From: a virus
Lineage: Duplodnaviria; Caudoviricetes
Reading direction: 5' to 3' (one strand)
Virus record (IMG/VR): IMGVR_UViG_3300015207_000465
Location: 1-64,000 of that record
Length of the DNA: 64,000 bases
The number at the start of each line of letters is the position of its first letter. Positions within the stretch are counted from its first letter, which is position 1. A model generated the notes under the pieces. That model ran no database searches. It saw nothing but the letters and a program-made list of their open reading frames with translations, and was not told the DNA's origin. The position numbers and the translations under genes were made by a program. Below, in pieces: positions 40,310 to 62,308 of the stretch.

Positions 40310-40382
40310 CGCGGGTTGGAGCAGTTGGAAGCTCGCCAGTTTAACTTGCTGGAGGTCGTGGGTTCGAGTCCTACACCCGCCA
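40310..40382 (+). tRNA. Initiator-type tRNA body with anticodon AAC (would read GUU)
   Basis: CGCGGGT/ACCCGCC acceptor with C1xC72 mismatch, A73, D stem GAGC/GCTC (A11:U24), stem CCAGT/GCTGG, loop TTAACTT, T arm GTGGG-TTCGAGT-CCTAC; CCA not encoded. Confidence 0.88.
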
Positions 40383-40413
40383 CAAATAAAAATCACTTTT
40401 ACAAACTTAATCG

Positions 40414-40767
40414 ATGAAGAAGTTAAAACTACAAATCAATGCAGCACACTTTCAGGAAATACTTGAAGGAAACGCAAAGGTAGAAGAACGTTTCGTCTAC
40501 CCCAACAACGTAGACCGCTACGTGACTGAATCCGATAACCCGGATGGAACTGTTACCATCACTCCGATACCCTATGACTGCATTGAATTTTCATGTGGAC
40601 GTAGTAAGAACGCACGAAAAATGACCGTCGCAGTCAAGGAAGCGCAATTCATCGTCTTGACAGACGAGAATGGCGAAGACATGACCTATGAAGAAAACGG
40701 AGTCGAATACGTGGTTTGCCAAGTATGGTACACACTTGGGAAAATATCAGATGTGGTTAATGCGTAG
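40414..40767 (+). CDS. ASCH-like protein
   Basis: L.LQI...F.EIL.G..K.EER..YD.I.F..G pattern. Confidence 0.7.
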   Translation: MKKLKLQINAAHFQEILEGNAKVEERFVYPNNVDRYVTESDNPDGTVTITPIPYDCIEFSCGRSKNARKMTVAVKEAQFIVLTDENGEDMTYEENGVEYVVCQVWYTLGKISDVVNA

Positions 40768-40808
40768 TGGTGTCAAGAAAAAAATAACCCCCTAAACATT
40801 ATCTCACT

Positions 40809-41048
40809 ATGCCCAGACAAACTACAACCCAGAGAAACATCGCCCGCGCCGTTGGCGCGCAGCGATACAATGGCGGTGGCCGCTACGGTAGCGGTGGCGG
40901 CGGTCGCTATGTAGGTGAACGCAGAAACGGAACGGCGACAAATAGCGGACGTCGCAATAGCCAACTTGGAACTCGCGAACAGAAACGCGCAGACCTCCGA
41001 TACGCTTTTCGCGATGCTATTCGCGCTGCCGGCGGAACAACCGGCTAA
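40809..41048 (+). CDS. Small Gly/Arg-rich basic protein
   Basis: GGGRY repeats; ATG ORF upstream of the PAPS-reductase-like gene. Confidence 0.65.
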   Translation: MPRQTTTQRNIARAVGAQRYNGGGRYGSGGGGRYVGERRNGTATNSGRRNSQLGTREQKRADLRYAFRDAIRAAGGTTG

Positions 41049-41059
41049 CCGCGAGTCGC

Positions 41060-41836
41060 ATGAATAAGTTTGAAGAAACCATGCAAATAATTCGGAGTAT
41101 CCGTCAAAAGACGGATACTGCCGTTTTATTTTATTCAGCCGGTGGAAAGGATGGCATCGCCTTGCTTGATATGCTTGCGCCGGTCTTTGAGAAAGTCATT
41201 TGCTATTACATGTGGCTTGTGCCGGGTCTTGACCATGTGAAGCCCTATCTGAAATGGGCGGTAACGAAATATCCCAACGTGGAAATAAGGCAGATTCAGC
41301 ACTATCAACGCGACTACTACGACCGCTATGGATTTTTTCAGCTTGGCGAGGGCAATCCCGACATCAAGCCGCGCAAAGTCGGCGAGGTGGAAGAGATGGT
41401 GCGCCAAGAAACAGGTATCAAGTGGGCGTTCAGCGGAATGAAAGGCGTTGACGGCTACATGAAACGTATGCGTCTGCTGACGTTCAGAAAAAGAAACGGA
41501 ACATACCTCACCGACAAGGGCATGGTCTACCCGTTGGCTGTCTGGACTAACAAGGAGGTGCTTCGCTACATTGAGATGCGGAATCTTATCAAGCCGTTTG
41601 TCTACAATCCCAAGGATGTAAGTCAAGGCTTCGGTGTGGATTTGCGCTCTTTACTTGTATTGCGACAACGATTCCCGCAGGACTACGAGCGCACCATCCG
41701 GGAATTTCCATTTTGTGAAAAACTTATCTTCGACTATGAGAACGGCATACTGCCGCATGGTCAGGAAAAGGAGGTGCTTGAAATCATCAAACGCATAGAA
41801 ACCGAATCAGAAATCGAATTAGAGAATGAAGCCTAA
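41060..41836 (+). CDS. PAPS reductase-family (PP-loop) protein
   Basis: YSAGGKDG, GMK..D...R, YPLAVWTNKEV. Confidence 0.85.
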   Translation: MNKFEETMQIIRSIRQKTDTAVLFYSAGGKDGIALLDMLAPVFEKVICYYMWLVPGLDHVKPYLKWAVTKYPNVEIRQIQHYQRDYYDRYGFFQLGEGNPDIKPRKVGEVEEMVRQETGIKWAFSGMKGVDGYMKRMRLLTFRKRNGTYLTDKGMVYPLAVWTNKEVLRYIEMRNLIKPFVYNPKDVSQGFGVDLRSLLVLRQRFPQDYERTIREFPFCEKLIFDYENGILPHGQEKEVLEIIKRIETESEIELENEA

Positions 41837-42713
41837 CAAGATAAAACAAGCGGAACAGCGCACCGTCAAGCGAAGCGAAATCAATTTCGCTTCATACAAC
41901 CCCCGCACCATCAGCGACGATGCGCGTAAGAAGCTCAAGAAGAATTTGCAGTCAGTCGGCTTACTTGGCGGTGTCGTATGGAACGTGCGCACCGGCAATC
42001 TTGTATCCGGCCATCAAAAAGTCGCCATCATGGATGCCGTCAATCGTTACAACCCGGAAACGGGCGAGAACGATTATGAATTTCGTGTTGAGGTCGTAGA
42101 CCTTGATTTGAAGACGGAAAAGGAGCAAAACCTCTTTATGAACAATAAGGCGGTGCAGGGTACATACGATGACGATATGCTGCGCTCCCTACTGTCGGAA
42201 ATAGATTACACCAATGCCGGATTTGACGATGTTGATTTACAGCTTCTCGGTCTTGGCGATTTTGGCGACTACGACACCCTTAATCTGGGAATCGGCGACT
42301 TTGACACTGCCGGCGAATCGCAGAACGGCGACACAGGCACACCCCCCGGTCAGCCGGAAACAAAAGACTGGTCAAAGAACGATGTCGTTGGCGAGCGCGA
42401 AGACCTTGCCATACATGACGAAATGACAAAGGAAAGTGGCGAGAACCACAAACTTGACCGGTCGGCTGGCTTCTATGAAGATAGTGAGGCGAACCAGATT
42501 GCACGCCACAACGAGGTGCAGAAAATCAAAGACCGCATCGCAAGTCAGAATGATGTTGACAAGGATGGCGGTATGCTGTCCTATGTTGTCATCAGCTTCA
42601 AGACACCGAGCGAAAAAGTCCGTTTCATGGAATCATACGGCTTCGACCCGATGGCGAAATACATCAACGGTGAAGAGTTCCAGAATAAGATTGAGTTCGG
42701 CGAAGACGAGTAA
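41826..42713 (+). CDS. ParB/Srx N-terminal domain protein
   Basis: YNPRTIS..LKKNL...GLLGGVVWN..GNLVSGHQ. Confidence 0.85.
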   Translation: MKPNKIKQAEQRTVKRSEINFASYNPRTISDDARKKLKKNLQSVGLLGGVVWNVRTGNLVSGHQKVAIMDAVNRYNPETGENDYEFRVEVVDLDLKTEKEQNLFMNNKAVQGTYDDDMLRSLLSEIDYTNAGFDDVDLQLLGLGDFGDYDTLNLGIGDFDTAGESQNGDTGTPPGQPETKDWSKNDVVGEREDLAIHDEMTKESGENHKLDRSAGFYEDSEANQIARHNEVQKIKDRIASQNDVDKDGGMLSYVVISFKTPSEKVRFMESYGFDPMAKYINGEEFQNKIEFGEDE

Positions 42714-42797
42714 AGTTTAATTCTTTTCTTTAATAATTGCTTGCGTAATTAAAGAATTTTGTTTATCTTTGCACTCTAAATAAGCGCTATTAAAAAC

Positions 42798-43067
42798 ATG
42801 AGTAATATAGAAAATAACAATAATTACTGGGCATTGCGATGCAAACTTAATGATGCACATAAATTTGTGACGCCGGAAGAAGTTGCGCGTTTTCGTAAGG
42901 ATTACGCAGATGTTTTTAGGTCTTACAAAGACGAAAACGGCTTGCGGGTTTATACCGACGAAGAAGTCCAGTTTGAAGCATACGAATATTACGACGATAA
43001 GGAAATCGCTACATTTATTCACCAAGGTCAAACGCCAAAAGGGTTGGCCGATACTATGACGATGTAG
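42798..43067 (+). CDS. Hypothetical protein (moron with own promoter)
   Basis: TATCTTTG motif at ~42764; ATG ORF. Confidence 0.65.
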   Translation: MSNIENNNNYWALRCKLNDAHKFVTPEEVARFRKDYADVFRSYKDENGLRVYTDEEVQFEAYEYYDDKEIATFIHQGQTPKGLADTMTM

Positions 43068-43068
43068 A

Positions 43069-43695
43069 GTTAAGAGGCCTAAGTTTAAAAAAAGTTTCAA
43101 CGAAGAGTTGAATCGTAAGTTGTCGGATGGTGGAATAAAACATCATCCCGATGGTTTATATCCTGCTGGGGTGGGTGAATTCCATAAAGCAATTAAAATT
43201 GCTAAAAGAAATAATGGTAATGGGTGGATGGTAGAGAAAAAGGGCAGGGGAAGTTATTCCGGGCTACGCCTCTTTATGTCTAAAGATAAGAAGATGGGAT
43301 TTGCCTTAGATGGCGATAATATAGTGTCTGTCTTTAGCTGTAAGCCAAAAGGAAGTAATGCGATGGGTAAAATTATCCCATTTGCAGTAGCCATGGGTGG
43401 CAGAAGATTGGACTGTTTCGCAGGTGGTCTTCAAAATCTTTATGCCAAGTATGGTGCGCGTCCAACAGGAAAAACACATTTCGACGAGCGATATGCGCCT
43501 CCCGGGTGGGATGGAAAGTCTCATCATCCAATTGTAGCGATGAGATTGCCAAACTCCCTTGAAAAATTGATTAAGGCTTACAACCCAAGACAAAAAGTCA
43601 GCCTTAACGGGGTGCGGTATTATTCTTCGTATAATGACATGGAAAATTCAGCGAGAAAGCGTGGTGCAAGGAATAATATTAAACAAAGCTCTTAG
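43069..43695 (+). CDS. GNAT-like domain protein; proposed GTT start
   Basis: DNIVSVFS..AVAMGGRRLDCF...L..LY.KYG..P....FDERYAPPGWD; frame open from 43060; first ATG far inside; TTG 43108 is the alternative start. Confidence 0.65.
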   Translation, partial: VKRPKFKKSFNEELNRKLSDGGIKHHPDGLYPAGVGEFHKAIKIAKRNNGNGWMVEKKGRGSYSGLRLFMSKDKKMGFALDGDNIVSVFSCKPKGSNAMGKIIPFAVAMGGRRLDCFAGGLQNLYAKYGARPTGKTHFDERYAPPGWDGKSHHPIVAMRLPNSLEKLIKAYNPRQKVSLNGVRYYSSYNDMENSARKRGARNNIKQSS

Positions 43696-43741
43696 AGGCG
43701 CACTTGGCGGTGGAAAATAACTAACCTACACAAATACGATT

Positions 43742-44335
43742 ATGGCAAAGATTGACGAACTTATCCCATTCATCCTTTACTTTGAAGCCGGCGTAAACGC
43801 GAAGTGCATGAGCCTGCCCCCGGAGCAGATATTTGCACAGGCACGGAAGACCGGCTTTGCGAATGACCCTGACGATGCCGGCGGCGCAACGATGTGCGGC
43901 ATCACGATTGAAACCTACAAGGCATATTGTCGGAAAAAAGGCTATCCCGTGCCGACGGTCGCAAGACTGAAAACTATCAGTTATGAGCAGTGGCGCGACG
44001 TGCTGAAAACGCTTTACTGGGATAGATGGAAAGCCGACGAAATCAGCAGCCAAGCCATCGCGAACAATCTCGTTGATTGGGTATGGGCGAGCGGTGTTCA
44101 CGGCATCAAGATACCGCAGCGCATACTGGGCGTAACGCAAGACGGAATTGTCGGCCCGAAAACGCTGGCGGCTGTCAATGCGGCAAACGAGGCGCAGTTG
44201 TTCACGGCTATCCACGAAGCCCGTATCAGTTTTGTTGACGGCATCGTGCGCAGAAAGCCGAGTCAGAAGAAATTCATCAAAGGCTGGAAACGGCGCATCA
44301 ACGCTATCACCTTATCCGGTCTGAAATTCACTTAA
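43742..44335 (+). CDS. Endolysin (GH108-like plus peptidoglycan-binding domain)
   Basis: FANDPDDAGGATMCGIT, YWD.WKAD.I, DGIVGPKTLAA, FIKGW.RR. Confidence 0.9.
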   Translation: MAKIDELIPFILYFEAGVNAKCMSLPPEQIFAQARKTGFANDPDDAGGATMCGITIETYKAYCRKKGYPVPTVARLKTISYEQWRDVLKTLYWDRWKADEISSQAIANNLVDWVWASGVHGIKIPQRILGVTQDGIVGPKTLAAVNAANEAQLFTAIHEARISFVDGIVRRKPSQKKFIKGWKRRINAITLSGLKFT

Positions 44336-44500
44336 CCCTATAAACGAAGAAAGGAGGTCACAATGAAATCACGCAAATCATGCGGCGGCAAGAAGAAGCC
44401 CGGCAAGGGTGGTAAATGCTGACAACGAAACGAAGATAAAGGTCAGTCGGAAAATTACACAATCCCCGGCTGACCATAAACCCTTAAAAAGCAAAGCAGA

Positions 44501-44701
44501 GTTAGACGCAGGAAAACAAGAGAACAAATAGAAGCCCAAGCATCGCGCCTCAGTGAAGCTAATTGGCGCAGGCGTAATGTGTGGGAAAGCGGCACCGCAT
44601 CCCGTAGGGCAAAAGAGTCACGCGACCGATTGATAGATAAAGCCGAGAAGCGTGCTTTAGTTCAAAACGGATTAAGAATGGCGACCGGGGGGGGCAAATA
44701 G
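44501..44701 (+). CDS. Small Arg-rich protein (66 aa, not in ORF track); proposed GTT start
   Basis: (V)RRRKTREQIEAQASRLSEANWRRRNVWESG...; in-frame TAA at 44477; no ATG/GTG/TTG until codon 27; A-rich leader. Confidence 0.6.
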   Translation, partial: VRRRKTREQIEAQASRLSEANWRRRNVWESGTASRRAKESRDRLIDKAEKRALVQNGLRMATGGGK

Positions 44702-44720
44702 CACACTCCGTTCAAGGATA

Positions 44721-44790
44721 TGCGTGTTAGAGAAGCGGTCATCTCGCCGTCATCAGACGGAAATCGCAAGTTCGACTCTTGCACACGCAG
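44721..44790 (+). ncRNA. tRNA-like RNA with 4-nt anticodon loop
   Basis: TGCGTGT/ACACGCA, GAGA/TCTC, CCGTC-ATCA-GACGG, GCAAG-TTCGACT-CTTGC. Confidence 0.75.
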
Positions 44791-44824
44791 CATAGAAAAA
44801 TAACGGAATTTCATTATCACGACA

Positions 44825-45496
44825 ATGCCGAAGAAGCGAATTAGCAACAAGACACCGCGCAAGCCCAAGGCAACACCCTCGTTTGACTACGAGAGTGAGG
44901 AATTTCTGTCGCGCATTGATGCACTTGCTTTTGAGGGCTTTTACAATACGGAAATCGCTGACGAATTGAACATTAGCCGATACGAATTGGAAATGGCGAT
45001 AAGTCAGTGCGAAAAATTGCGCAACACGATAGCGTCTGCCCGCGAGCGTGCGCGTGCGCAAGGCGCGGAAATGCCATCACCCGCTATGTTCGCAAAGGTC
45101 TGGGCTGAATGTAACGGAAAGCGCACCCTACTGATGAAAAAGTTCGGAATTGGCTGGACTAAACTGCAATCGTGGTTGGCGCAAGAGCCGATATTCGTAG
45201 ATATAATGGCGGAACGCGACCTTGAATTTCTTGAGCAGATTGATGTCGCCAGCCGCATCCTTGCATTGGGCGGTGTGAAAGGAAAGGACAACTTTGCGGG
45301 ATGGAGTCGCTACCCCGACAGTTGGATGATGCGCTATCATCTGAATACACTCGGAAGACGATACGGCTATGGCGAGAATCCTATCCAACAGGAAGCCGAA
45401 GACACCGACATTCCGAAGAATATTGAACAAGGAATCGATATTGAAAGCTGGATTAAGCAGGAAGTGGAACAAAAGAAGCGTGATACGGAACAATGA
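44825..45496 (+). CDS. Terminase small subunit (putative)
   Basis: HTH segments; ATGA-coupled to TerL. Confidence 0.7.
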   Translation: MPKKRISNKTPRKPKATPSFDYESEEFLSRIDALAFEGFYNTEIADELNISRYELEMAISQCEKLRNTIASARERARAQGAEMPSPAMFAKVWAECNGKRTLLMKKFGIGWTKLQSWLAQEPIFVDIMAERDLEFLEQIDVASRILALGGVKGKDNFAGWSRYPDSWMMRYHLNTLGRRYGYGENPIQQEAEDTDIPKNIEQGIDIESWIKQEVEQKKRDTEQ

Positions 45497-47745
45497 TAAT
45501 CAACCATGAGATATATTACCCCCTTTATACCGACAAGGAGCATTTCATCATCCTTGTTACGGGCGGTCGTGGCTCTGGTAAATCATTCGGAATCGGCGGC
45601 TTCATAGAACGCCTATCGTTTGAATTGAAGCGCAAAGGCTATTCCAATTCAGACACCGATAAGATAGTCCACAACGTACTTTACACGCGCTACACGATGA
45701 CGAGTGCCAGCATTTCCGTTATCCCCGAGTTCTTGGAAAAGATAGACCTTGACGGCACGGGCAGGTATTTCCGCACAACGAAATCGGATATTGTCAACAA
45801 GATGACCGGCAGCCGCATCATGTTCCGCGGCATCAAGACATCATCGGGCAATCAAACCGCCAAGCTGAAATCAATTCATGGCATCACAACCTTTGTATGC
45901 GACGAAGCGGAAGAATGGACTTCTGACCGCGAGTTTGAAACAATCGCCTTTTCCATCCGTCAGCCGGGTATCCAAAATAGGATTATCATCATAATGAACC
46001 CGACCGACAGTAATCATTTCATCTATCAGAAATACATCAAGGATACGCACCGGATTGAGTATTTTGACGGATTCCCCGTGCAGATTTCCACGCATCCGCA
46101 AGTGCTTCACATCCACACTACATATCTTGACAACAAAGCCAATCTATCGGAAGAGTTCATCAAGTCTGCACAGGAGATGAAAGAGCGCGACCCGGAACGG
46201 TACGCCCACATCTTCATGGGCAGATGGGCAGACGTAGCCGAGGGTGCGGTCTTCAAGAAATGGGGCATCGTCAAAGAATTTCCGAAAAACTGCAAACGTG
46301 TGGCCCGCGGTCTTGACTTTGGATATACCAACGATGTCAGCGCGTGCGTGAAATGCGGCATCATCGGAAACGACCTTTACATCGACGAACAATTCTTCAA
46401 GTCCGGGATGCTTTCTTCCGAGCTGATAAAAGCACTGCGCGAAGATGATTCTTTCGTCTACGCCGACAGTGCCGACCCGCGACTGATTGACGAAATCGCC
46501 CTCGGTGGCGTAATCATCTACCCGGTTGCGAAGCCAGCCGGAAGCATCATCGCCGGCATAGAAAAGATGAAATCGTTTGACAACATCTTCATCACGGAAC
46601 GCTCGCTGAATGTTCAGGACGAGTTCAGAAATTATGTGTGGGCGAAAGACAAAGATGGTAACTACATCAACGTGCCGGAAGACAGATTCAACCACTGCTT
46701 TACAGGCGATACACTAATCATGACAACAAAGGGACAAATACCCATCTCGGAAATAACCACAAATGACTATGTGCTAACATCAAATGGTTGTAAAAGAGTA
46801 GAAAACACATTTAATAATGGACTCAAGAAGATATTGCATATTCGGTTGATTTTTGCTAATTTTGTAGTTGAGTTAAAAGGGACACCAGACCATAAAATAA
46901 AGACAGTTGATGGATGGAAACAACTACAAGAATTGACAAAAGGGGATGTGCTATACTTGTGCAAACCTTTAATGGAAAGGAGTACTCGCTCTATCCCGGA
47001 GAAAGATACTTCTCGCGAGGATGTAAGCGATTACACCGCGTCGTCTGGGAGTATTATTACGGTGCAATCCCCAAAGGGTGTCACATCCACCACAAAGACG
47101 GTGATACCCACAATAACGAAATCGGAAACCTCGAAATCGTGGAGTGTAAAAAACACCTATCGCTACATGCTGAAGAGCACAACGACAATCCTGAAATGCT
47201 TGCCGAGCTGCGTGATAGAATGGATTATGCCAGAGGGTATGCAAATAAATGGCATCGTTCAGAAGAAGGCATCGAATGGCATAGAAAACACGGCAAAGAG
47301 GTGGCAGAGAATCTTGAGCCGATTGAATTTACGTGCCAATGGTGTGGAAAGAAGTTTATGTCCAAGCCATGTGGAGCTAACAAATTCTGCTCAAACGGAT
47401 GTAAAACGAAGTTCAGATACCATTCCGGTATTGACAACGAAACAAGAATTTGCAAGCAATGCGGCAAAGAGTTTGTCGCAAACAAATACTCACGAACTTA
47501 CTATTGCTCCCGGCGATGCTCGGGATTGCATAGCGCAGCCGTGCGTCCTGAAAGGGATAGAGATAGTAGCGGAAAATACCGCTAAAGTATACGACATACA
47601 GGTTGCTGACATACACGAATATTTTGCAAATGGAATACTCGTGCATAATTGTGTCGATGCCTCTCGCTACTATGTCTTGGGCTGCATCCTTGGCAAAATA
47701 CTCAAGCCGAAGAATGTAAAGAAATCTGATTTAGGAATATTCTAA
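45493..47745 (+). CDS. terL: Terminase large subunit (PBSX type) containing an intein
   Basis: TGGRGSGKS, CDEAEE, MNP, GLDFGY, ADSADP, and NH|CVDASRY split by the intein; spliced length 432 aa. Confidence 0.95.
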   Translation: MIINHEIYYPLYTDKEHFIILVTGGRGSGKSFGIGGFIERLSFELKRKGYSNSDTDKIVHNVLYTRYTMTSASISVIPEFLEKIDLDGTGRYFRTTKSDIVNKMTGSRIMFRGIKTSSGNQTAKLKSIHGITTFVCDEAEEWTSDREFETIAFSIRQPGIQNRIIIIMNPTDSNHFIYQKYIKDTHRIEYFDGFPVQISTHPQVLHIHTTYLDNKANLSEEFIKSAQEMKERDPERYAHIFMGRWADVAEGAVFKKWGIVKEFPKNCKRVARGLDFGYTNDVSACVKCGIIGNDLYIDEQFFKSGMLSSELIKALREDDSFVYADSADPRLIDEIALGGVIIYPVAKPAGSIIAGIEKMKSFDNIFITERSLNVQDEFRNYVWAKDKDGNYINVPEDRFNHCFTGDTLIMTTKGQIPISEITTNDYVLTSNGCKRVENTFNNGLKKILHIRLIFANFVVELKGTPDHKIKTVDGWKQLQELTKGDVLYLCKPLMERSTRSIPEKDTSREDVSDYTASSGSIITVQSPKGVTSTTKTVIPTITKSETSKSWSVKNTYRYMLKSTTTILKCLPSCVIEWIMPEGMQINGIVQKKASNGIENTAKRWQRILSRLNLRANGVERSLCPSHVELTNSAQTDVKRSSDTIPVLTTKQEFASNAAKSLSQTNTHELTIAPGDARDCIAQPCVLKGIEIVAENTAKVYDIQVADIHEYFANGILVHNCVDASRYYVLGCILGKILKPKNVKKSDLGIF
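46696..47649 (+). mobile_element. Intein (318 aa) in the TerL nuclease motif
   Basis: Block A CFTGDTLI, block B GTPDHKI, block F VYDIQV..HEYFANG, block G ILVHN followed by Cys+1. Confidence 0.93.
46914..47585 (+). CDS. HNH homing endonuclease with two C-terminal Zn fingers, nested out of frame in the intein
   Basis: LHRVVWE..G.IPKG.HIHHKDGD..NN.I.NL; CQWC..FCSNGC and CKQC..YCSRRC. Confidence 0.88.
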   Translation: METTTRIDKRGCAILVQTFNGKEYSLYPGERYFSRGCKRLHRVVWEYYYGAIPKGCHIHHKDGDTHNNEIGNLEIVECKKHLSLHAEEHNDNPEMLAELRDRMDYARGYANKWHRSEEGIEWHRKHGKEVAENLEPIEFTCQWCGKKFMSKPCGANKFCSNGCKTKFRYHSGIDNETRICKQCGKEFVANKYSRTYYCSRRCSGLHSAAVRPERDRDSSGKYR

Positions 47746-47756
47746 CACTACCAGAT

Positions 47757-49214: not shown

Positions 49215-49437
49215 ATCTGCCATTGTTTCATATCTGGATGCGCCACGCTCTGTGTTAAGGGTGTGGCGCATTGTTTATGTAGACATCGCACTATCAGCCA
49301 ATTAAAGTATTTACTTATATTAACAATAGTTAAAAATAACAATATGCTTTAATTTTTTGGCTTAAAAATTTGGTAGATTAAAGCAAAAGCTATAACTTTG
49401 CATCGTAATCAAAAACAAACCCAATAAGTAATAAGAT

Positions 49438-52346: not shown

Positions 52347-52510
52347 ATCTTTGTTGTTTGATTTGATGTTGCAAAGGTAAATCAAATAAATGTATCTTAG
52401 AAACAAAAATAAATCTTTAACATTTGTTTAACACTCGCGAAGTACATTTATTTGGTGGATTAAATTATTCTCTTTAACTTTGTGCCGCATAATTAAAGTA
52501 ATCACCAGAA

Positions 52511-53508: not shown

Positions 53509-53729
53509 TTTATTTGGAATAAGCAAATAAGCGCATCAGTCATCACGACTGGTGCGCTTTCTTTGTTGTATCAATGTTGTATCAATTTCCAGATATGCTG
53601 ATAAAACAAATTCGGCAACGCATTGGTATTGCGCGGAATAGAATTTAGCATTGTAGTGCCACCAGTACCACTAAAAAGGCGACACGCCTCTCGGCGCATC
53701 GCCATAGGAAAGGGTGTGTGAAAAAGGGG

Positions 53730-55013
53730 TCATTGTTGTTTGATTTCAGCAGTCACGCCGTTAGTGTCGGTCACGTCTGCCGGGTTAATCGTTTTTGCGG
53801 TATCGGGATTTTCAGCAGCCACCGACAATCCTAAATCGCAGAAGCCCTTGCAAGCTCCGCGATAGCCGTTGAAAAATTCAGTGGCGGTCATGCGTCGCTT
53901 GTTCGGCATCTGCAATTCAAGTACGGAAAGAAGATTGTCGCCACAGGCGATGTATAGCTTTCGGTCTTGCCAGAATAGCTCGCCGGGCGCATGGTGGCCA
54001 CGCGGTATGTCGGTCTTTTCCGTTCTGAAAATCTTGACGCTCATGGCCTGCTTTCCAAGCATGGCCAGTGAAGTCCAAGCTGATGGGATTGGAGTAAGTG
54101 CGCGTATGAAGTCATAGACGTAATCGGCGGGCTTGAGCCACGGAATGATGCAGTCCTTGCGATGTAGCTTTGGCGCGTAGCATGGCTGGATGAAGTCACA
54201 GATAAGCTCCGACTGAGGAATGGGGTTGCATGAATGGGCTATGCGCTGGATTGCATCGTCTATCATTTCCGCGCCGGCAATGCGTAGCTTGATGTGAACG
54301 TCTTCCGCGTTATCATCTTCATCAATGCCGATGGCAAGATTGTTTATGATGCCGCCGGTGTCGATTTTGTCTTCAAGCATGAACGTTGTCACGCCGGTCA
54401 TGGCATTACCATCCTTGATTGCGGATGCGATGGTGGAAGCACCGCGATACATGGGCAGCATAGATGAGTGGAGGTTGATTGTACCCCACGACGGAATGGT
54501 GTATAGCGCACGTGGCAGTATTCTGAACTCCACTACTACGCCGAGCGTCGCATGAAGATTGTGGATGTGCCGCAGAAATCTATTAGAGTCAAGTTTCCGT
54601 GGTTGAAAAACAAGGATGCCCATAGATTCGGCATAAACCTTGACCGCAGATGGCCGCAGTTTCTTGCCACGCCCGCACGGTTTATCTTCCATAGTTACGA
54701 CTGCCGCGACATCATATCCGTTTTCAACAAGCATTTTTAGCGTGGGAAGCGCAAACTGCCCATTGCCGAAGAATATGATGCGTATTCCCTTGCGTGATAC
54801 AGGCTTGTCAAAATCACGTTCCGGGTATGAAACAATATCAGTTTCGTCAACAATTACATAACCGCCGGATTTCTTCAATCGCAGAAAGTAAGAGCCATCA
54901 TCTTTTGGGTATAAGATTTTGGCTTCCGTAAAAATACCGCCCCCATCATTACCGTGCAGGAGTCTGCTTGGAATTTGGACTGTCTGCCCGACGCGATAAA
55001 GAGGTGTTTTCAT
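53730..55013 (-). CDS. fmt: Phage-encoded methionyl-tRNA formyltransferase homolog with extra N-terminal domain
   Basis: IIFFG..FA, VVT..DKP.GRG.KL, INLHSSMLPMYRGA, TGVTTF..IDTG, YAPKL, QMPNKRRM; ATG 55013 coupled to the XRE stop. Confidence 0.92.
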   Translation of the reverse strand: MKTPLYRVGQTVQIPSRLLHGNDGGGIFTEAKILYPKDDGSYFLRLKKSGGYVIVDETDIVSYPERDFDKPVSRKGIRIIFFGNGQFALPTLKMLVENGYDVAAVVTMEDKPCGRGKKLRPSAVKVYAESMGILVFQPRKLDSNRFLRHIHNLHATLGVVVEFRILPRALYTIPSWGTINLHSSMLPMYRGASTIASAIKDGNAMTGVTTFMLEDKIDTGGIINNLAIGIDEDDNAEDVHIKLRIAGAEMIDDAIQRIAHSCNPIPQSELICDFIQPCYAPKLHRKDCIIPWLKPADYVYDFIRALTPIPSAWTSLAMLGKQAMSVKIFRTEKTDIPRGHHAPGELFWQDRKLYIACGDNLLSVLELQMPNKRRMTATEFFNGYRGACKGFCDLGLSVAAENPDTAKTINPADVTDTNGVTAEIKQQ

Positions 55014-55279
55014 CGCGGCGTGGCGGTTTTGATGTCGATACGTGCGCCGCACTGCGGGCAGATGATTGTTGCCGGGTTGGGTGCGAGGTAGTCTGTGAAT
55101 AGTGATGCAACTGGTACGTCAAGAGCTTCCGCTATCTTTTCAAGGGTAGAGATGTTGGGGCTATTCTTCTCGTTCACGATACTGCCAAGAGTCTGGGGAG
55201 CTATATTCATTTTTTCGGCAAGACTTTTCAGTGTCATACCTTTGGCGGCAACGATTGCTTTAATTCTGAATTTTGACAT
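55010..55279 (-). CDS. XRE-family HTH regulator with zinc ribbon
   Basis: TLKSLAEKM..PNISTLEKIAEALDVPV; CPQCG. Confidence 0.87.
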   Translation of the reverse strand: MSKFRIKAIVAAKGMTLKSLAEKMNIAPQTLGSIVNEKNSPNISTLEKIAEALDVPVASLFTDYLAPNPATIICPQCGARIDIKTATPR

Positions 55280-55467
55280 AAAGTATTTTACTGATTGGGG
55301 TTGTTTTGCTATGAGTATCGCAAAGTTACTCTTCCGCAGTCAGTTAAAACGAGTTCAGAGAGTGAAAAATTGTTAAATACTGATTTAAGTAATGGTTAAT
55401 ACTTGCACGATAAATAATATTAGTGTACCTTTGCAGAGGTCAAACTATAAACGACCACCTTAAAACA

Positions 55468-55788
55468 ATGAGTCAAGCAGAAAGCTACATAGAAGAGGAT
55501 TGCGACGATTACGCTTACGATAGCAATTATGACTTATACGATAGTCTGGATTGCGATGACGTAAGCTGCATGACCGACCGCCCCTCGCGATTTGTGCAAC
55601 GCCACATTTTACCCGGATTGCATCCCTTGATAGAAGAAATTAGGGCTAAAAATGCCGGTGCGAAGATGGGAGAAGAATTGCGATGCCCGGTTTGTGGAAA
55701 ACGATTTTTCAAAAAATCGTATCAGCAGAAATTCTGTTCTAACGACTGCAAGGTTAAATACCACAATAAACGACAGGTATGGTACTGA
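55468..55788 (+). CDS. Zinc-finger protein
   Basis: CPVCGKRF.KKSYQQKFCSNDC; promoter motif TACCTTTG at ~55426. Confidence 0.7.
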   Translation: MSQAESYIEEDCDDYAYDSNYDLYDSLDCDDVSCMTDRPSRFVQRHILPGLHPLIEEIRAKNAGAKMGEELRCPVCGKRFFKKSYQQKFCSNDCKVKYHNKRQVWY

Positions 55789-56138
55789 CTAAACAAATTG
55801 ATACCCCTTTATTTGGGCAGGCTCAAATGTTCAGCGAGTCTATTTCTACGTCAGTCATTCGCAAAGCTGTGATGGATGGGCGTAAAATTCGCCTTATGCA
55901 ACACGCCATTGGTCTTAACAACCCATATTCTAAAGTCAGAAAGGGCTGTTACACCGCTTACCGCAACTACTTTGTCGCTGGAAAAGGAGATGCAAGTTGG
56001 GATGAATTAGTCGCCGCTGGCCTTGCCACAAAACGCCAAGATACATTATACGAACTGAACACAGTTTACCATCTAACCGAAAAGGGAATAAACATCCTCG
56101 CGGAAATTATGAACATAAAAATCATAGAAGCAAAATGA
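55779..56138 (+). CDS. Hypothetical phage protein
   Basis: MQHAIG..YRNYF..WDELV..G.A..YHLTEKG. Confidence 0.65.
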   Translation: MVLTKQIDTPLFGQAQMFSESISTSVIRKAVMDGRKIRLMQHAIGLNNPYSKVRKGCYTAYRNYFVAGKGDASWDELVAAGLATKRQDTLYELNTVYHLTEKGINILAEIMNIKIIEAK

Positions 56139-56596
56139 TATACGAAGAAATTATGTATGGCATTAAGTGCAATCGTTGCCATGAAATCTTTGAGAATAGC
56201 GAAAGTTACACCGTTGCTGTTGATAAGGATGATTTTGAGGCAGAGGCGACGGAAGATGGCTGGCACAAGGATGGCGATGCGCACTATTGCCCCAAGTGTT
56301 ACATGGTAGATGAGAATGATGTGATAGTCGTAAAGCCGCGAATACACCATCTATTTTTCAAGTTTTGGAACTTGCTCAAGGCGTTTACCGGATGTGTGCA
56401 TCGATTTACCGAAACGGAAACACACTACACGCTGACAAATCATCATTGCTACAAACGATTGAATAAAGCGCGGATTTCAATCTTGCAAGAAGTCATCGCT
56501 GATTTCACAATCGAATATCGCACACCGGAAAGAATGGTCGGTCAGCCCTACGAAATAGAAACTATCAGCATCCCCAAAGATTTCAAAAGGCAATAA
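56135..56596 (+). CDS. Hypothetical protein with Zn ribbon
   Basis: CNRC..GW....HYCPKC. Confidence 0.65.
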   Translation: MIYEEIMYGIKCNRCHEIFENSESYTVAVDKDDFEAEATEDGWHKDGDAHYCPKCYMVDENDVIVVKPRIHHLFFKFWNLLKAFTGCVHRFTETETHYTLTNHHCYKRLNKARISILQEVIADFTIEYRTPERMVGQPYEIETISIPKDFKRQ

Positions 56597-56607
56597 ACCA
56601 AGCAACG

Positions 56608-56820
56608 ATGGCAAAAGCGGAAGAAATATTTGACCTGCTATACGAAATCAACAACAAGATAGCGGAACAAGAACTGACGGTAAGAGAGTCGGTGCGGTTG
56701 TATTTATCCCTTATCACGATGGCTTTCACAAAAGCCGGCGCAACCAAAGAGATGATACCATTTATCCTCAAAGAGGTGGGCGAATACTTGTCTGAACGGT
56801 TAAAAGAACAGTTAAAATAG
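56608..56820 (+). CDS. Hypothetical protein
   Basis: ATG ORF. Confidence 0.55.
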   Translation: MAKAEEIFDLLYEINNKIAEQELTVRESVRLYLSLITMAFTKAGATKEMIPFILKEVGEYLSERLKEQLK

Positions 56821-57027
56821 GCATCATGGAAACATTGACTGCTATGCAGATATTGGAGCTTAAAATAGTAGGCTACAATCCACCGAAAGACCAGATAACC
56901 CTTGATGATATTCTGCGCATATTGCCATCGGAACTAAACAAGGGAAAGCATCGCCAGTGGCATCCTGCCTTTCGGCTTCGTAGTAAAAGAAGACTAAACA
57001 ATCACATCAAACCCCACAACAAGCAAT

Positions 57028-58155
57028 ATGAAATTCTCTATCAACAACAAGGCTCTATTAAGCCGACTGCTTGCCGCTGGAAAGGCGGTCAGCAACCGAC
57101 CCACGATTTCCATCTTGAGTAATTTCCTGTTTGTCCTTGAGGGCAATGTTCTCACCATCACGGCATCCGACTCCGACAATGTGGTGGTGTCACGCATCAC
57201 CGTCAACGATGCAGAGGGCGCAGGCAAGGTATGTATCGACGCAAAACGTGTTACGGAATTACTCAAGGCAATGCCTGACTGCCCCGTGTCTTTCGACATC
57301 AACGACGCGACCCTCGCAGTGGTCATCCGTTATACCAATGGCAAGTATAATCTTTCAGGACTGCCCGGTGCGGAATACCCCATGGCAGACATCGACGACT
57401 CGCAGACCAAAGGCTCTTTCACACTGCCGGCATCGCAAATCCTTAACGCAGTTGATAAGGTAGGTTTTGCCGTAGGTAACGATGAGTTGCGTCAGACGCT
57501 GAACGGCATCTATTGGGATATTACGGAAGACGCAATCACATTTGTAGCTACCGACTCCCGCGTACTTGCCAAGTATCGCAGCACACAGACCGCCCCCGGC
57601 GTGACAATGAGTTTCAATCTGCCGGGCAAGTCAGTATCCCTTATCCGTGCCTTTATCGGAAAGCAGGCCGATGTCAAGCTGACCGTCACCGAAAGAGCCG
57701 CAGTCTTTGAGGGCGATGATTTCAAGGTGCGTACAACGCTTTACAACGGAAGATACCCGGACTACAACCGTGTCATTCCCACCAATCAGCCCATCACCGT
57801 CAACATTGACCGCATGGATTTCGCCAACGCCATCACACGTGTATCAATCTGCGCCGATGCGCAGTTATCGCTCCTGCGCCTTAAAATGACAAATGGAACG
57901 CTTGATGTCATGGCACAGGATATGAGCTTCAACGTAGGCGGCGAAGAGCGTATCACTTGCGACTACGCCGGCGATAAGCTGGAAATCGGTTTCAGCTCGT
58001 CATACCTCAAGGGTGTGCTTAACGCTATGGCAACGCAGAATATCGTAATGAAGCTATCCACGCCTGACCGCCCCGGCTTATTCTTGCCCGCGGAAAACGA
58101 CGAATACGGCGAGCTTACATTGCTTTGTATGCCGATGAGTATTCAGCAGGCGTAA
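57028..58155 (+). CDS. dnaN: DNA polymerase III beta sliding clamp (phage copy)
   Basis: 375 aa; ILSNFLF..LTITASD, FVATDSR.LA, GRYPDYNRVIP, IGFSS.YL, L.MPM. Confidence 0.93.
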   Translation: MKFSINNKALLSRLLAAGKAVSNRPTISILSNFLFVLEGNVLTITASDSDNVVVSRITVNDAEGAGKVCIDAKRVTELLKAMPDCPVSFDINDATLAVVIRYTNGKYNLSGLPGAEYPMADIDDSQTKGSFTLPASQILNAVDKVGFAVGNDELRQTLNGIYWDITEDAITFVATDSRVLAKYRSTQTAPGVTMSFNLPGKSVSLIRAFIGKQADVKLTVTERAAVFEGDDFKVRTTLYNGRYPDYNRVIPTNQPITVNIDRMDFANAITRVSICADAQLSLLRLKMTNGTLDVMAQDMSFNVGGEERITCDYAGDKLEIGFSSSYLKGVLNAMATQNIVMKLSTPDRPGLFLPAENDEYGELTLLCMPMSIQQA

Positions 58156-58319
58156 TGGAATACAATGCTCCGCTCAATGAAGAAAGTAATATCTAAAATC
58201 AAAGACATTCTTTTCATGGTCTACGCAGTCTTCGCCTGTCTTATCCTTGCGGTCATTCTTGGATTGACAAGCGATAAGACGGAAGAAGACTACGACCCAT
58301 GGGATTGCTATCAGTAACT

Positions 58320-58772
58320 ATGACAAGAGTAATCAAGTTTCGCGGAAAATCAATCGCCGATGGCAAATGGGTTTATGGCGATTTGGTACACACATCTACC
58401 CAGAAAGCGGCTATCTGGCCTACGGAAAAAGGACACGATGGCGGCATGGTAGAGGTCAGACCCAATACCGTCGGTCAGTACACCGGTCAGCGCGACCGCA
58501 ACGGAAACGAAATCTATGAGGGCGATGTTGTGCGTCAGGCATGGGAAACAACCATCACGGATGAAGATGGAGCTTTCTCTGCAAAAGGCAATCAAACCGG
58601 CATCGTTGTCATTCGTACAAGGGGCGTGTGCCTTTCGCCCTGCCTTTGCGAAAACGACATTTCGGAAGATGCAATGCTGACAAAGAACATCCCCGTGACA
58701 GGCAAACGCTCCGAAATCATCGGCAATAGCCACGATACACCATCTCTTTTTGAAGAAATCTGTAACTCTTAA
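58320..58772 (+). CDS. YopX-family protein
   Basis: IKFRGK..WVYGDL..TVGQYTG..D.NG.EIYEGD..IIGN. Confidence 0.88.
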   Translation: MTRVIKFRGKSIADGKWVYGDLVHTSTQKAAIWPTEKGHDGGMVEVRPNTVGQYTGQRDRNGNEIYEGDVVRQAWETTITDEDGAFSAKGNQTGIVVIRTRGVCLSPCLCENDISEDAMLTKNIPVTGKRSEIIGNSHDTPSLFEEICNS

Positions 58773-58786
58773 CACCCAAAAAAACA

Positions 58787-59806
58787 ATGAAAACCTACAT
58801 CGGAACAAAACAGCTCTGCGCAGAGCCTATGACCAAGGGCGAGGCGTATGACCGTTCACTGCTTCGTGGCGACATCGACGCTACGGAACGTGAAAATCCC
58901 GGCTATCACGTTGTCTATCCCGACGGATATGAAAGCTGGTCGCCCCAAAATGTGTTTGATGCCGCTTATCATGTTGCGGAAACACCCGTTGACCGCATCA
59001 ACATTCAGTGGTACGACATCGACAACAAGGCTGGCGAATATTCCGCATGGGCCTGCAATTTCTATACCGGATGCTCAAACAACTGTTCATACTGCTATTG
59101 CAAGCGTGGCGTTATGAGCCATGTGTGGAGCGATGAACCCAAACTTAAAAAGTGCTTCAAGGATGAAGCCGATGCACTTGCAGTATTCACAAAGGAACTG
59201 ACCGCCAATATCGACGAGCTACGCAATACAGGCATCTTTTTCAGCTTCACGACTGACCCCATGATACCCGGCAAGACGTTTGAATTGACGGTTGACGCAA
59301 TGAAAGTCGCGTTGACAAATGGCGTTCCGGTTCAAATCCTGACCAAACGTGCGGATTGGTGGGATACCGACACATGGAAAGACAATGAGCAATTCTTCGC
59401 TGATTACGCGGATAAAATTGCGGTCGGTTTTACATTGACATGCCGTGATGACCTTGAACCGGGCGCAAGTCCGCACAAGGAAAGAGTGTCGGCGATGTCT
59501 TTATGCGCAAGCTGGGGATTTCACACCTTTGCAAGCATTGAGCCGATTGTCGATATAGTCAATTCGGAACTTGCGATGTCGGATGTGCTACCGTACTGTC
59601 AGCTATTCAAAGTCGGCCTGATGAGCGGTGGTGCAAAACCCGACAAGGCGGCATTAAAGGAGATGCTTGATAGATGGAACAGCCGATTGGATAAGCTCGG
59701 CAAGAAAATCTATTGGAAGCAGAGCGTAGTTGATTATCTGGGCGATGATTTCACGTTCTGGTTAGACTCCTGCGTGGATGCCGACTACAACATATTTAGC
59801 TACTGA
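58787..59806 (+). CDS. Radical SAM protein with fused N-terminal phage domain
   Basis: YIGTK..AEPM..GYHVVYPDGYESWSP domain followed by GCSNNCSYCYC (CxxxCxxC), FTTDP, LTK, SIEP. Confidence 0.8.
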   Translation: MKTYIGTKQLCAEPMTKGEAYDRSLLRGDIDATERENPGYHVVYPDGYESWSPQNVFDAAYHVAETPVDRINIQWYDIDNKAGEYSAWACNFYTGCSNNCSYCYCKRGVMSHVWSDEPKLKKCFKDEADALAVFTKELTANIDELRNTGIFFSFTTDPMIPGKTFELTVDAMKVALTNGVPVQILTKRADWWDTDTWKDNEQFFADYADKIAVGFTLTCRDDLEPGASPHKERVSAMSLCASWGFHTFASIEPIVDIVNSELAMSDVLPYCQLFKVGLMSGGAKPDKAALKEMLDRWNSRLDKLGKKIYWKQSVVDYLGDDFTFWLDSCVDADYNIFSY

Positions 59807-60010
59807 TATTGTTTTAAGGTAAAGATAGATTGTTAATTAGTACTTTTGCGGAGCGTGTCGTTGTGAAACGATGCGCTTTCTTTTTGCCTATTCCGTATAA
59901 AGTTACGACTTTAAGTAAGTTGTCGTGAGTGATGCTTGCTTTAATAATGTGGTTGTCGGTTTTGGGTCGTAGTTTTGCGTAGATAAACTTAAACCCCCAA
60001 TCATATCCAG

Positions 60011-60757
60011 ATGAAAAATAAAATCTTTGCAAAACTAAAACAGGAGTATTCCTCTCTTGGGTTAGGCGACGAATATCTGATGGCAAAAGCCGATTCCCTT
60101 GCAGCGACCGGTCTTGTGACTGACGATAACGTCGATGCTGTCGTGGCATGTCAGCGTAAAGAGCTTGAGGGTCTTCAAAAGTCCAACGACAAACGTGTTA
60201 CCGACGCTCTTGAAAAGGAACGTAAAAAGCACGAAGAAGAAACTCGCAAAAAGGAGCAGGAAGCCGAGGAAGCGCGTCGCAAAGCGGAAGAAGAGGCAAA
60301 GGGCAAAGTGAAGCCCGAAGTTACCGACCCCGCCGGCGACCCGCGATACGACGAACTGAAAAAGCAGTTTGACGAAATCGTCGCCGCCGGAAAGAAGCGC
60401 GATGCTGAGTCGGCTGCAACCATCAAGGCTCTTACCGATAGGAACACGGAACTTGGCAAGGCGGTCAAAGACCTCACTGACAAGAATACCGCAGCGGAAG
60501 CAGCAGCTGCCAAAGCAGCACGCAATGCGATGATAGTGGCGAAAGCCAAAGAGTTGGGCGTTCCGCAGTGGCGTATCGACGAGGGCTTCATTATCGCGGA
60601 TGACGCGACCGATGAGGTTGTAACCGAAACGCTGACCAAGGTTGCGAACAACATCAACACCAATATTCTTCCGGGAAATCGTGGCATGTTCCCCATGGCC
60701 GGCAATGAGCCTACCAAGGATGAGCTTGCTTCGATGGCTGCAAACCTCGTTAAGTAA
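60011..60757 (+). CDS. Capsid scaffold-like protein
   Basis: Charged coiled coil upstream of the head genes. Confidence 0.7.
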   Translation: MKNKIFAKLKQEYSSLGLGDEYLMAKADSLAATGLVTDDNVDAVVACQRKELEGLQKSNDKRVTDALEKERKKHEEETRKKEQEAEEARRKAEEEAKGKVKPEVTDPAGDPRYDELKKQFDEIVAAGKKRDAESAATIKALTDRNTELGKAVKDLTDKNTAAEAAAAKAARNAMIVAKAKELGVPQWRIDEGFIIADDATDEVVTETLTKVANNINTNILPGNRGMFPMAGNEPTKDELASMAANLVK

Positions 60758-60779
60758 CAACTAAACCCCAACAAGAATT

Positions 60780-61211
60780 ATGAAGAATGACATCTCACCC
60801 AACAAGGAAACGGTTGTCTTCGGCAATGATTCCGCAGTAATCCGTAAGTACATCAGCGGTATCCCCGGTGGTCGTACTCTGGACTGCACCGGTTTCAAAG
60901 AAGACACCGTGCTGGCCGGCCACGTCATCATCAAGAAGACTGACGGCAAGTATGCCCCCATGCCCGTTAAGGCAGCAGTTCCGGCATCAGGCGAAACAGC
61001 CGCAACGCCCGCGAGCTACGACTCGCTTCCCGCCGGCGCAACCTACGTGGGCATCCTTTATCGCTCCATCAGCGTAAAGAACCCCGCAGCTTCCATCATG
61101 TACGATGGCGTCGTAAACGACAAATTAGTTCCCTATCCCATGACAAGCATCTTGACCGCGTTCAAGACCGCTTGCCCTCACATCATTTTTGAACAGGACG
61201 AGGAGGCCTAA
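60780..61211 (+). CDS. Head decoration-like protein
   Basis: DS.VIRKY..GIPGGRTLD..AGHVII; directly upstream of the capsid gene. Confidence 0.65.
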   Translation: MKNDISPNKETVVFGNDSAVIRKYISGIPGGRTLDCTGFKEDTVLAGHVIIKKTDGKYAPMPVKAAVPASGETAATPASYDSLPAGATYVGILYRSISVKNPAASIMYDGVVNDKLVPYPMTSILTAFKTACPHIIFEQDEEA

Positions 61212-61219
61212 GAATCAGA

Positions 61220-62308
61220 GTTAATCAGTCATTTTATTTCGATTACGCAAAGCGTTTCTTCCCCGGCCTTGTGCTGGCTATCGTAGAACGCCTCAACGAG
61301 AAGCGTGCCAATTCCGCTCTCACCTACCTTTACAAAGAAAAACTTCGCCCGCAGTTTTCGCTTGATGGCCGCTGGGCTTCCATCCTTGCGGAATACACCC
61401 GCGTAGCCGCCGACGTTGTGGCACTTGACTCCGAGCTTCCGCTCAAGAGCCGTGACACACTGGAGGTTGCTTCCGGCACAATTCCCAAAATCGGTATGAA
61501 GCTCTACCTGACCGAAAAGCAGATGAAAGACGTTGACTCGATGATTGCGCAGGGTGTTCCCCTCCAGACCATCATCGACAACATCTTCGCTGATACCCCC
61601 CGTTGCATCGAGGGCATCTGGGAGCGCATCGAAGACATCTTCCTTTCGGAGCTTTCGTCGGGTGTCGGCGTTTCCGAGCGCAACAACGGCACAGGTGTGC
61701 GCATCAACATGAATTTCTATGACGACAACCAGTTCGCTGTTTCCAAACTTTGGAGCAACACCGACGCAACTCCGCTTGACGACATCCAGAAACTTGTTGA
61801 CAAGTCCATTACCGACGCAAACACCATCATCGACGCATACGCTGACGACACCGCCCTCGGTCTTCTCTACAAGAACAAGCAGGTGCGTTCACAGTTCGCG
61901 TTCAATCAGGGCATCGCCATGACCGGTTCGACCACCGTGCCGGTGCTTGACTTTGCGAAGCTCCAGCAGATTTTCCTCACCAAGTGGAACATCAATCTGC
62001 ACCGCGTCGCCCGCCGTGTCAAGACCGAGCTTAACGGCGAAAAGAAAAACCATACCCCGTGGAAGACCGGAACAATTTCCTTTGTCTGCGATGAAGAGCT
62101 TGGCTCACTCGTATGGACTAACGTTGCCGAGGCTTCGCGCCCCGTTGAAGGCGTTGTCTATCAGACTGCCGACCAGTACATCCTCGCAAAGAAATATTCC
62201 AAGACCGACCCCCTCCGCGAGTTTACCGCTTCCGAGGCTATGGTTGTGCCTGTGTTGAACAACGTTGACCGCATCTACACGCTCGACACTCAGACAGTTC
62301 AGGAATGA
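61220..62308 (+). CDS. Major capsid protein; proposed GTT start (362 aa)
   Basis: Size and position; VAADVVALDSELPLKSRD..G.IPKIG; frame open from 61193 with no ATG near the 5' end; first GTG at 61271. Confidence 0.8.
   Translation, partial: VNQSFYFDYAKRFFPGLVLAIVERLNEKRANSALTYLYKEKLRPQFSLDGRWASILAEYTRVAADVVALDSELPLKSRDTLEVASGTIPKIGMKLYLTEKQMKDVDSMIAQGVPLQTIIDNIFADTPRCIEGIWERIEDIFLSELSSGVGVSERNNGTGVRINMNFYDDNQFAVSKLWSNTDATPLDDIQKLVDKSITDANTIIDAYADDTALGLLYKNKQVRSQFAFNQGIAMTGSTTVPVLDFAKLQQIFLTKWNINLHRVARRVKTELNGEKKNHTPWKTGTISFVCDEELGSLVWTNVAEASRPVEGVVYQTADQYILAKKYSKTDPLREFTASEAMVVPVLNNVDRIYTLDTQTVQE

Follow-up and report, generated by a model that had tools for sequence, protein, structure and literature searches.

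The provirus

The sequence considered here (the window) comprises the first 64 kb of a provirus record of 103,409 bp in IMG/VR, IMGVR_UViG_3300015207_000465 (G000), and positions above 64,000 refer to the same record. It carries a tRNA gene that combines the body of an initiator tRNA with the anticodon AAC, a group of late genes, including that of the major capsid protein, that appear to begin at GTT, and a gene for a formyltransferase of the methionyl-tRNA type. The runs that hold this stretch are all DNA metagenomes of mouse or rat gut, no RNA run being among them, and at least two studies of the mouse gut have yielded metagenomes with near-identical DNA. Prophages with the same type of tRNA occur in Muribaculaceae, Prevotella, Bacteroides and other Bacteroidales, cultured strains included; among the cultured lysogens are Paramuribaculum intestinale DSM 100749, Lepagella muris NM04_E33 and Muribaculaceae Isolate-036. 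The features with which we are mainly concerned are as follows (lengths in amino acids, aa):

40310..40382, plus strand: initiator-type tRNA, anticodon AAC, loop UUAACUU (ARAGORN, Rfam and direct reading)
53730..55013, minus strand: methionyl-tRNA formyltransferase-type gene (fmt), 427 aa, with Formyl_trans_N and Formyl_trans_C domains
61220..62308, plus strand: major capsid protein gene (Phage_cap_E, PF03864, phrog_29), start GTT in the context AGA-GTT-AAT

An initiator-type tRNA with the anticodon AAC

A preliminary description of this DNA had recognised at 40310-40382 a tRNA with an AAC loop in a body of the formylmethionine type (tRNA-fMet), and this has been confirmed. ARAGORN calls a tRNA-Val(AAC) at 40310-40383, Rfam finds a tRNA at 40310-40382 with 47.2 bits, and direct reading gives an acceptor stem with a C1xC72 mismatch, G2:C71, C3:G70 and the discriminator A73, a D stem with A11:U24, and an anticodon stem CCAGU/GCUGG made up in part of A29:U41, G30:C40 and U31-G39. 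With tRNA-fMet it therefore shares the absence of a Watson-Crick pair at 1:72 and the formylation determinants G2:C71, C3:G70, A11:U24 and A73, while its anticodon is AAC and not the CAU that goes with charging by MetRS. With an elongator tRNA-Val it shares A35, C36 and A73, which are the identity elements of valyl-tRNA synthetase (ValRS), but not the Watson-Crick 1:72 pair or the purine at position 37, where it has C1xC72 and U37. Both A34 and U37 are unusual in bacterial elongator tRNA-Val. This is the sole intact tRNA and it reads GUU.

The AAC tRNA is kept in three related records (G001, G003 and G004), in which the T stem shows compensatory changes and the 1:72 mismatch is retained as CxC or CxU; the gene has therefore been selected as a tRNA. 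Directly 5' to it lies a further structure:

40264..40309, plus strand: 14-bp hairpin ending directly at the tRNA 5' end

The fold energy of this hairpin has a z-score of -3.9 and compensatory changes are seen in the same three records; it may serve in processing or regulation. In phages with a GAC version of the tRNA (see below) this place is taken by a small hairpin of a different kind.

Two other elements of the window resemble tRNAs. One, at 44721-44791, lies between a small arginine-rich gene and the terminase genes and has normal acceptor, D and T arms, with a 5-bp stem and 4-nt loop replacing the anticodon loop. It is 93% conserved in G003 (69484-69554), the loop letters differing (ATCA against ACAT), and a search of it with Rfam gave nothing meaningful. 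The other, at 15028-15129, is recognised as a tRNA by Rfam (48.9 bits) with no ARAGORN call and has a structured insertion of ~35 nt replacing the anticodon loop; a near-identical copy is present in G001 (3272-3373).

The start of the major capsid gene

The capsid gene is assigned to its family by Pfam (25.2 bits against a cut-off of 22.9) and by phrog_29 (E = 3.5e-31). Its frame is open from 61193 and the earliest canonical start within it is GTG 61271. A search of 5.8 billion proteins brought up homologues, 361-364 aa in length, that align with 99% of the frame as read from 61214; their N-terminus, M-E/N-K/Q-S-L/F-Y-F, is in register with V-N-Q-S-F-Y-F in the window, where V is encoded by GTT 61220. 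The gene calls of the nearest relatives (75-100% identity) are ragged and truncated, at 308-348 aa, and no canonical start is therefore conserved among them.

The codon aligned to GTT 61220 was compared across 80 IMG/VR capsid loci. It is GTT in 11 (as GA-GTT-A), GTA in two (as GA-GTA-A) and ATG in 66, the remaining locus being uninformative since its alignment begins at residue 4. The ATG codons belong to the more distant relatives (66 of 66) and the non-ATG codons to the closer ones. In ten loci (L002-L009, L011 and L014) an in-frame TGA stands immediately 5' of the capsid GTT or GTA, and an upstream start is therefore impossible in these relatives. Strain variants, seen in contigs from other studies, differ at 61217, 61224 and 61225, with no change at 61218-61223.

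Several alternatives were rejected. A start at ATC 61214 is incompatible with the TGA that relatives carry at the codon preceding GTT. An assembly error at GTT 61220 is excluded by the recurrence of this codon, which 11 independent contigs of IMG/VR share with the contigs of two further studies. Fusion of the capsid protein to the upstream open reading frame (ORF) by frameshift or read-through is excluded in the window, where the frames differ, and in L002, where the frames coincide, two stops separate the capsid gene from the upstream ORF. Stop-codon recoding is likewise excluded, the ORFs being long, contiguous and open under table 11.

It could also be supposed that these genes begin at canonical codons further downstream, such as GTG 61271 in the capsid gene and TTG 43108 in the gene at 43069 described below, the conserved upstream codons being untranslated. 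Gene callers have picked such starts (for example in P0001, 345 aa), and when the protein is read from GTG 61271 the Phage_cap_E match begins at profile position 43 for residue 43. The 17 codons that precede GTG 61271, however, are conserved in amino-acid sequence with the homologues of the ATG type, with S4, Y6, F14, P15, L17 and V18 invariant, and differences among relatives in these codons include synonymous ones. The downstream starts are themselves not conserved, as the ragged calls attest, and the same pattern recurs in a second gene (64030). We find downstream initiation scarcely credible.

Co-variation of anticodon and start codon

The preliminary description proposed that, if the tRNA initiates at the capsid GTT, its anticodon loop should co-vary with the capsid start context in related prophages, and that relatives without the tRNA and fmt should have ATG at the aligned codon. 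Both predictions were borne out. In whole-record searches the capsid GTT was found together with an AAC tRNA in G000, G001, G003 and G004. In G005 the capsid start is GTA and the record encodes an initiator-type tRNA with the loop UUUACUU, and hence the anticodon UAC, which has C1xU72, A11:U24, A73 and U31-G39; of the two loci with a GTA capsid start this is the one whose record is long enough for the tRNA to be sought. Among the 66 distant capsids with ATG, 21 whole records were searched for the tRNA and fmt and none has an AAC or UAC tRNA (0/21), an absence that rests jointly on a strict loop pattern and on ARAGORN, the strict pattern having missed four GAC tRNAs that ARAGORN called.

The design is not confined to the relatives of this capsid. 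A scan of IMG/VR anchored on the loop recovered initiator-type bodies with UUGACUU at 65 loci and with UUAACUU at 16. In all, 34 distinct tRNAs have valine anticodons (22 GAC, 11 AAC and one UAC), and every one of them has the loop UU-NAC-UU, U31-G39 and A73. G2:C71, C3:G70 and the lack of a Watson-Crick pair at 1:72 are each found in 33 of the 34; A11:U24 was required by the pattern with which the tRNAs were parsed. Initiator-type phage tRNAs with other non-CAU loops were also seen, namely CUUAUAA (UAU) in L128 (IMG/VR 3300027773_000183) and UUCCUUU (CCU) in L237 and L240, and the design may extend to further start codons, as in these three.

The most widespread apparent clients of these tRNAs are two families of small arginine-rich proteins, A and B, encoded near the tRNA and terminase genes and found by homology (e.g. 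G001 31587, G004 13269, G015 29833). They are 56-107 aa in length, many end in Gly-Gly, and no Pfam or PHROG family was found for either. Their genes start with GTC or GTT in GAC records and with GTT only in AAC records. When 60 distinct contexts were tallied, the start was GTT in 22 of 22 from AAC records, GTC in 19, GTT in seven and GTA in one from GAC records, and GTA in three of three from UAC records. That GAC reads C and U and AAC only U fits the wobble rules and argues against inosine at position 34; editing of A34 to inosine is indeed unlikely, as AAC phages never use GTC or GTA. A homologue of family B in G000 itself (40809-41048) has an ATG start.

These data bear on another account, in which the host tRNA-fMet initiates inefficiently at the GUU codons, perhaps helped by their context, and the AAC tRNA is an ordinary elongator for GUU. 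Weak initiation at many non-AUG codons does occur in bacteria, and elongator tRNAs are often encoded by phages, several of the relatives among them. In an E. coli control lacking an engineered initiator, Met was found at a GUU start (bioRxiv 10.1101/2021.05.25.445580). GUU is, however, two positions off AUG, and a capsid gene needs high output. The tRNA retains the 1:72 mismatch, which disfavours EF-Tu, together with A11:U24 and an fMet-type acceptor, and A34 and U37 are, as mentioned above, atypical of elongator tRNA-Val. Moreover, the change of start to GTA coincides exactly with the anticodon UAC, and GTC is seen only with GAC. On these grounds we regard use by the host initiator as very unlikely.

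Other probable GUU-start genes in the prophage

A GA-GTT-A followed by a long ORF shortly past an in-frame stop occurs at five sites in the record (43069, 44501, 61220, 64030 and 89368). Besides the capsid gene these are:

43069..43695, plus strand: 208-aa protein, phrog_2563 (a family of unknown function), context TAGA-GTT-AAG
44501..44701, plus strand: 66-aa arginine-rich protein of family A, beginning VRRRKT, just upstream of the terminase genes
64030 of the record, just past the window: 182-aa virion gene, start GTT, in the block of genes that follows the head genes
89368 of the record, beyond the window: 83-aa protein gene, start GTT in GA-GTT-A

Three late ORFs, those at 43069, 44501 and 61220, had been described as sharing an AGA-GTT start and lacking a usable ATG. 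The shared start stands, with AGAGTTA at 43066, 44498 and 61217 and ORFs of 208, 66 and 362 codons opening 3-9 codons past an in-frame stop; AGAGTTA occurs 11 times in the window against 5.3 expected. It should be added that canonical codons do exist downstream (TTG 43108 and GTG 61271), although alignments with homologues oppose their use. The assignment of the 43069 product as GNAT-like has to be abandoned, as Pfam gave nothing and PHROGs only phrog_2563. Orthologues of this gene in G001 and G003 (40% identity) keep GA-GTT-AAA at the aligned residue 1, TTG 43108 being a possible alternative start in G000.

For the gene at 64030, V aligns with the M of distant homologues (VTNNAPK against MSNPAPK in P0136, for example), and the nearest relatives are again truncated gene calls. 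The 89368 protein aligns at residue 2 with position 2 of the phrog_38535 profile. Orthologues in G001, G003 and G004 keep GA-GTT. A TAACCC motif lies 17-18 nt 5' of both GTT codons, and the same motif is found 16-18 nt 5' of ATG in three other genes. A tally of codons that follow Shine-Dalgarno-like motifs, made over ORFs without a canonical start, was noisy: GTT and GTC ranked high, not cleanly, together with the neighbours AGA and CGA.

Just upstream of the arginine-rich gene is an ORF for a 19-aa peptide rich in Lys and Gly (44364-44421), whose ATG is preceded by a strong motif of the AGGAGG type. An intein interrupts the gene for the large terminase subunit (45493-47745), with Pfam matches to Intein_splicing and Hint_2 that separate the ATPase part from the nuclease part.

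Sequence context of the start codons

In the 60 contexts, about 12 of which were first located by a scan that required GA, position -1 is A in all and position -2 is G in 58; -3 is free, +4 is A in 44 and +5 is variable. The near-invariant GA is complementary to U38 and U37 of the loop. According to the preliminary description all seven loop bases could pair with GAGUUAR. As far as -2 and -1 are concerned the contexts agree with this, but they do not carry it through to +4 and +5. Pairing on the 3' side, of the mRNA with U33 and U32, is weakly supported. Before GTY there is an enrichment of G at -5 and of C at -4 (41/60 each); it would extend the complementarity to positions 39-41 in GAC tRNAs but not in AAC tRNAs, and may therefore reflect no more than shared ancestry of the arginine-rich gene families.

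The co-conservation of U37 and U38 with the mRNA bases at -1 and -2, beyond the triplet, invites another explanation: a tRNA-shaped RNA might act through seven-base pairing of its loop with GAGUUA, marking, unfolding or regulating the message, without being an aminoacylated initiator, the first peptide bond being made by another route. The anticodon stem is not initiator-like, and the second tRNA-like element at 44721-44791 has no normal anticodon loop, both of which would be in keeping with such a role. The determinants of formylation and aminoacylation (A73, G2:C71, C3:G70, A35 and C36) are, however, present in nearly all of the 34 variants, a formyltransferase of the Met-tRNA type accompanies the tRNA in this lineage, and the engineered analogue is a true initiator. 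We therefore consider action by loop pairing improbable.

The phage formyltransferase

The presence of a phage fmt at 53730-55013, also noted in the preliminary description, was upheld. Both domains are found (Formyl_trans_N, PF00551, E = 3e-29; Formyl_trans_C, PF02911, E = 3e-19), the protein scores 217.8 bits against the TIGR00460 equivalog, just over the cut-off of 201.5, and it aligns over its full length with solved Fmt structures (E = 1e-45). INLHSS and IDTG match the 4IQF columns of the N-x-H and D motifs, which we take to be the catalytic residues. The N-terminus has ~77 extra residues. Its substrate may be Val-tRNA(AAC), the Met-tRNA-fMet of the host, or both. Upstream lies a regulator gene:

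55010..55279, minus strand: helix-turn-helix (XRE/cI-like) regulator gene, overlapping fmt by ATGA

The ATG of fmt overlaps the stop of this gene, and the two are apparently in one operon. No peptide deformylase gene was found in the record.

Each of the six records whose capsid start is not ATG (G000-G005) has an fmt gene, that of G005 at only 37% identity, as do three more AAC records of sufficient size for it to be sought, and none of the 21 ATG-capsid relatives has one. It was not found in the tested records of a second AAC lineage, which are 33-68% complete. Relatives of fmt in G029, G031 and G033 fall below the TIGR00460 cut-off.

The probable prophage junction

One more RNA gene lies near the far end of the record:

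99516..99911 of the record, beyond the window, minus strand: transfer-messenger RNA (tmRNA) gene, tag GENNYALAA

This gene is probably on the host side of the prophage junction. Comparison of the left end (12-16.5 kb) with the tmRNA end for attachment-site repeats gave just one 14-mer.

Proposed mechanism

The association described above is real and lies well past chance. It is probable, judging from comparative sequence data, that the tRNA is a phage-encoded orthogonal initiator and that initiation at these GUU codons depends on it. This reading, already put forward in the preliminary description, is supported by the co-variation of capsid start and anticodon, by the alignment with ATG in distant relatives and by the TGA that precedes GTT or GTA. 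The AAC tRNA would have been derived from tRNA-fMet, keeping those features of the acceptor and D arm that are used by the formyltransferase and IF2 and that exclude EF-Tu. With A35, C36 and A73 it would be a substrate of the host ValRS, receive valine and then be formylated, in this lineage by the phage Fmt. The formylated tRNA would be set in the ribosomal P site on GUU within G(-2)A(-1)-GUU-A(+4), where U37 and U38 could extend the codon-anticodon helix to A at -1 and G at -2. The late genes that would rely on a GUU start number at least five, those of the capsid, 182-aa virion, 83-aa, 208-aa and 66-aa arginine-rich proteins, and because they begin at GUU their translation would need the phage tRNA. 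We are less confident of formylvaline (fVal) as the initiating residue and of a dedicated role for the Fmt.

A number of findings tell against this interpretation. Bacterial initiators have three consecutive G:C pairs in the anticodon stem that serve P-site selection, and the AAC tRNA has one of these three (G30:C40); in addition it has a pyrimidine at position 37. Within the same sets of contigs, the CAU initiators of host type are AU/GC/GC (29:41, 30:40, 31:39) in many cases and GC/GC/GC in others, and because the former arrangement is frequent the gap is smaller relative to them than relative to E. coli. Six relatives whose capsid gene starts with ATG have a GAC tRNA of the same design, and the capsid gene is therefore a client only in this lineage. 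The formyltransferase is absent from all 22 of the GAC-tRNA records tested, so it is not a general requirement of the system and goes with the lineage whose clients include major virion genes. Its co-occurrence with the tRNA is, moreover, confined to one clade and inseparable from common descent. Pairing of U33, normally the former of the U-turn, with +4 is unlikely, neither +4 nor +5 being invariant, and the part played by a GA-requiring scan in locating about a fifth of the start contexts must be borne in mind when the invariance of GA is considered.

In its fullest form the proposal is of a start signal owned by the virus: a specialised Fmt would produce fVal-tRNA(AAC), the host initiator would be unable to read the five-base GAGUU signal, and synthesis of the capsid, of other virion proteins and of DNA-packaging-associated proteins would strictly require expression of the tRNA, like designs with GAC or UAC serving many Bacteroidales phages. 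We incline slightly towards this fuller proposal. As conjectured in the preliminary description, such a system might serve to gate capsid synthesis, to hinder piracy by satellites or to evade attack on the host tRNA-fMet.

Comparison with known systems

If correct, this would be the first natural reassignment of a start codon, the identity of which has hitherto been treated as fixed by the single initiator tRNA of the host, and a natural counterpart to the orthogonal initiation systems of synthetic biologists. It would raise the questions of how a tRNA without the three G:C pairs passes the IF3 and P-site checks and of why virion genes should be gated in this way. There are consequences for annotation, as gene callers truncate or miss client genes (witness the ragged capsid calls and the arginine-rich families without a Pfam or PHROG entry), and the tRNA, the context rule and possibly a Val-adapted Fmt could provide parts for orthogonal translation. 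The cultured lysogens make the claim directly testable.

Older work reportedly engineered tRNA-fMet(GAC) and tRNA-fMet(CUA). The preliminary description knew of no natural system like the present one, and a full-text search of the literature agreed in finding no natural phage system of this kind and only the engineered E. coli initiator tRNA (i-tRNA) with the anticodon AAC. Proteins that it starts at GUU carry Val and fVal, and the steps that add and remove the formyl group of Val are limiting (bioRxiv 10.1101/2021.05.25.445580); i-tRNA(AAC) for GUU starts is the subject of a further paper (10.64898/2025.12.21.695813). The phage tRNAs resemble the engineered mutants in having an fMet-type body with an AAC or GAC anticodon and a complementary Val start codon, and the hallmark of engineered orthogonal initiation, a start codon that changes together with the complementary anticodon, is seen here as AAC with GTT, UAC with GTA and GAC with GTC or GTT. 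They differ in being natural, phage-encoded and widespread in Bacteroidales phages, in a redesigned anticodon arm (U31-G39, U32, U33, U37 and U38, without the three G:C pairs), in the fixed GA before the start and, in this lineage, in the phage's own Fmt.

Compared with canonical tRNA-fMet, the AAC tRNA has in common the 1:72 mismatch, G2:C71, C3:G70, A11:U24 and A73, and differs in its AAC in place of CAU, in having one of the three G:C pairs, in U37 and in the expectation of Val instead of Met. The phage Fmt is like bacterial Fmt (E. coli 1FMT/2FMT; 4IQF) in both of its domains, its N-x-H and D motifs and its passing of TIGR00460, and unlike it in the ~77 extra N-terminal residues, its divergence, its phage origin and its link to a non-Met initiator tRNA.

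The recoding of stop codons in late phage genes by phage suppressor tRNAs, reportedly described by Borges et al. (Nat Microbiol, 2022), offers a further parallel. There, as here, a phage tRNA would alter the reading of a specific codon, mainly in late or structural genes, and make their expression tRNA-dependent. Here, in contrast, it is a start codon that would be reassigned, and the standard code leaves every ORF in the record open.

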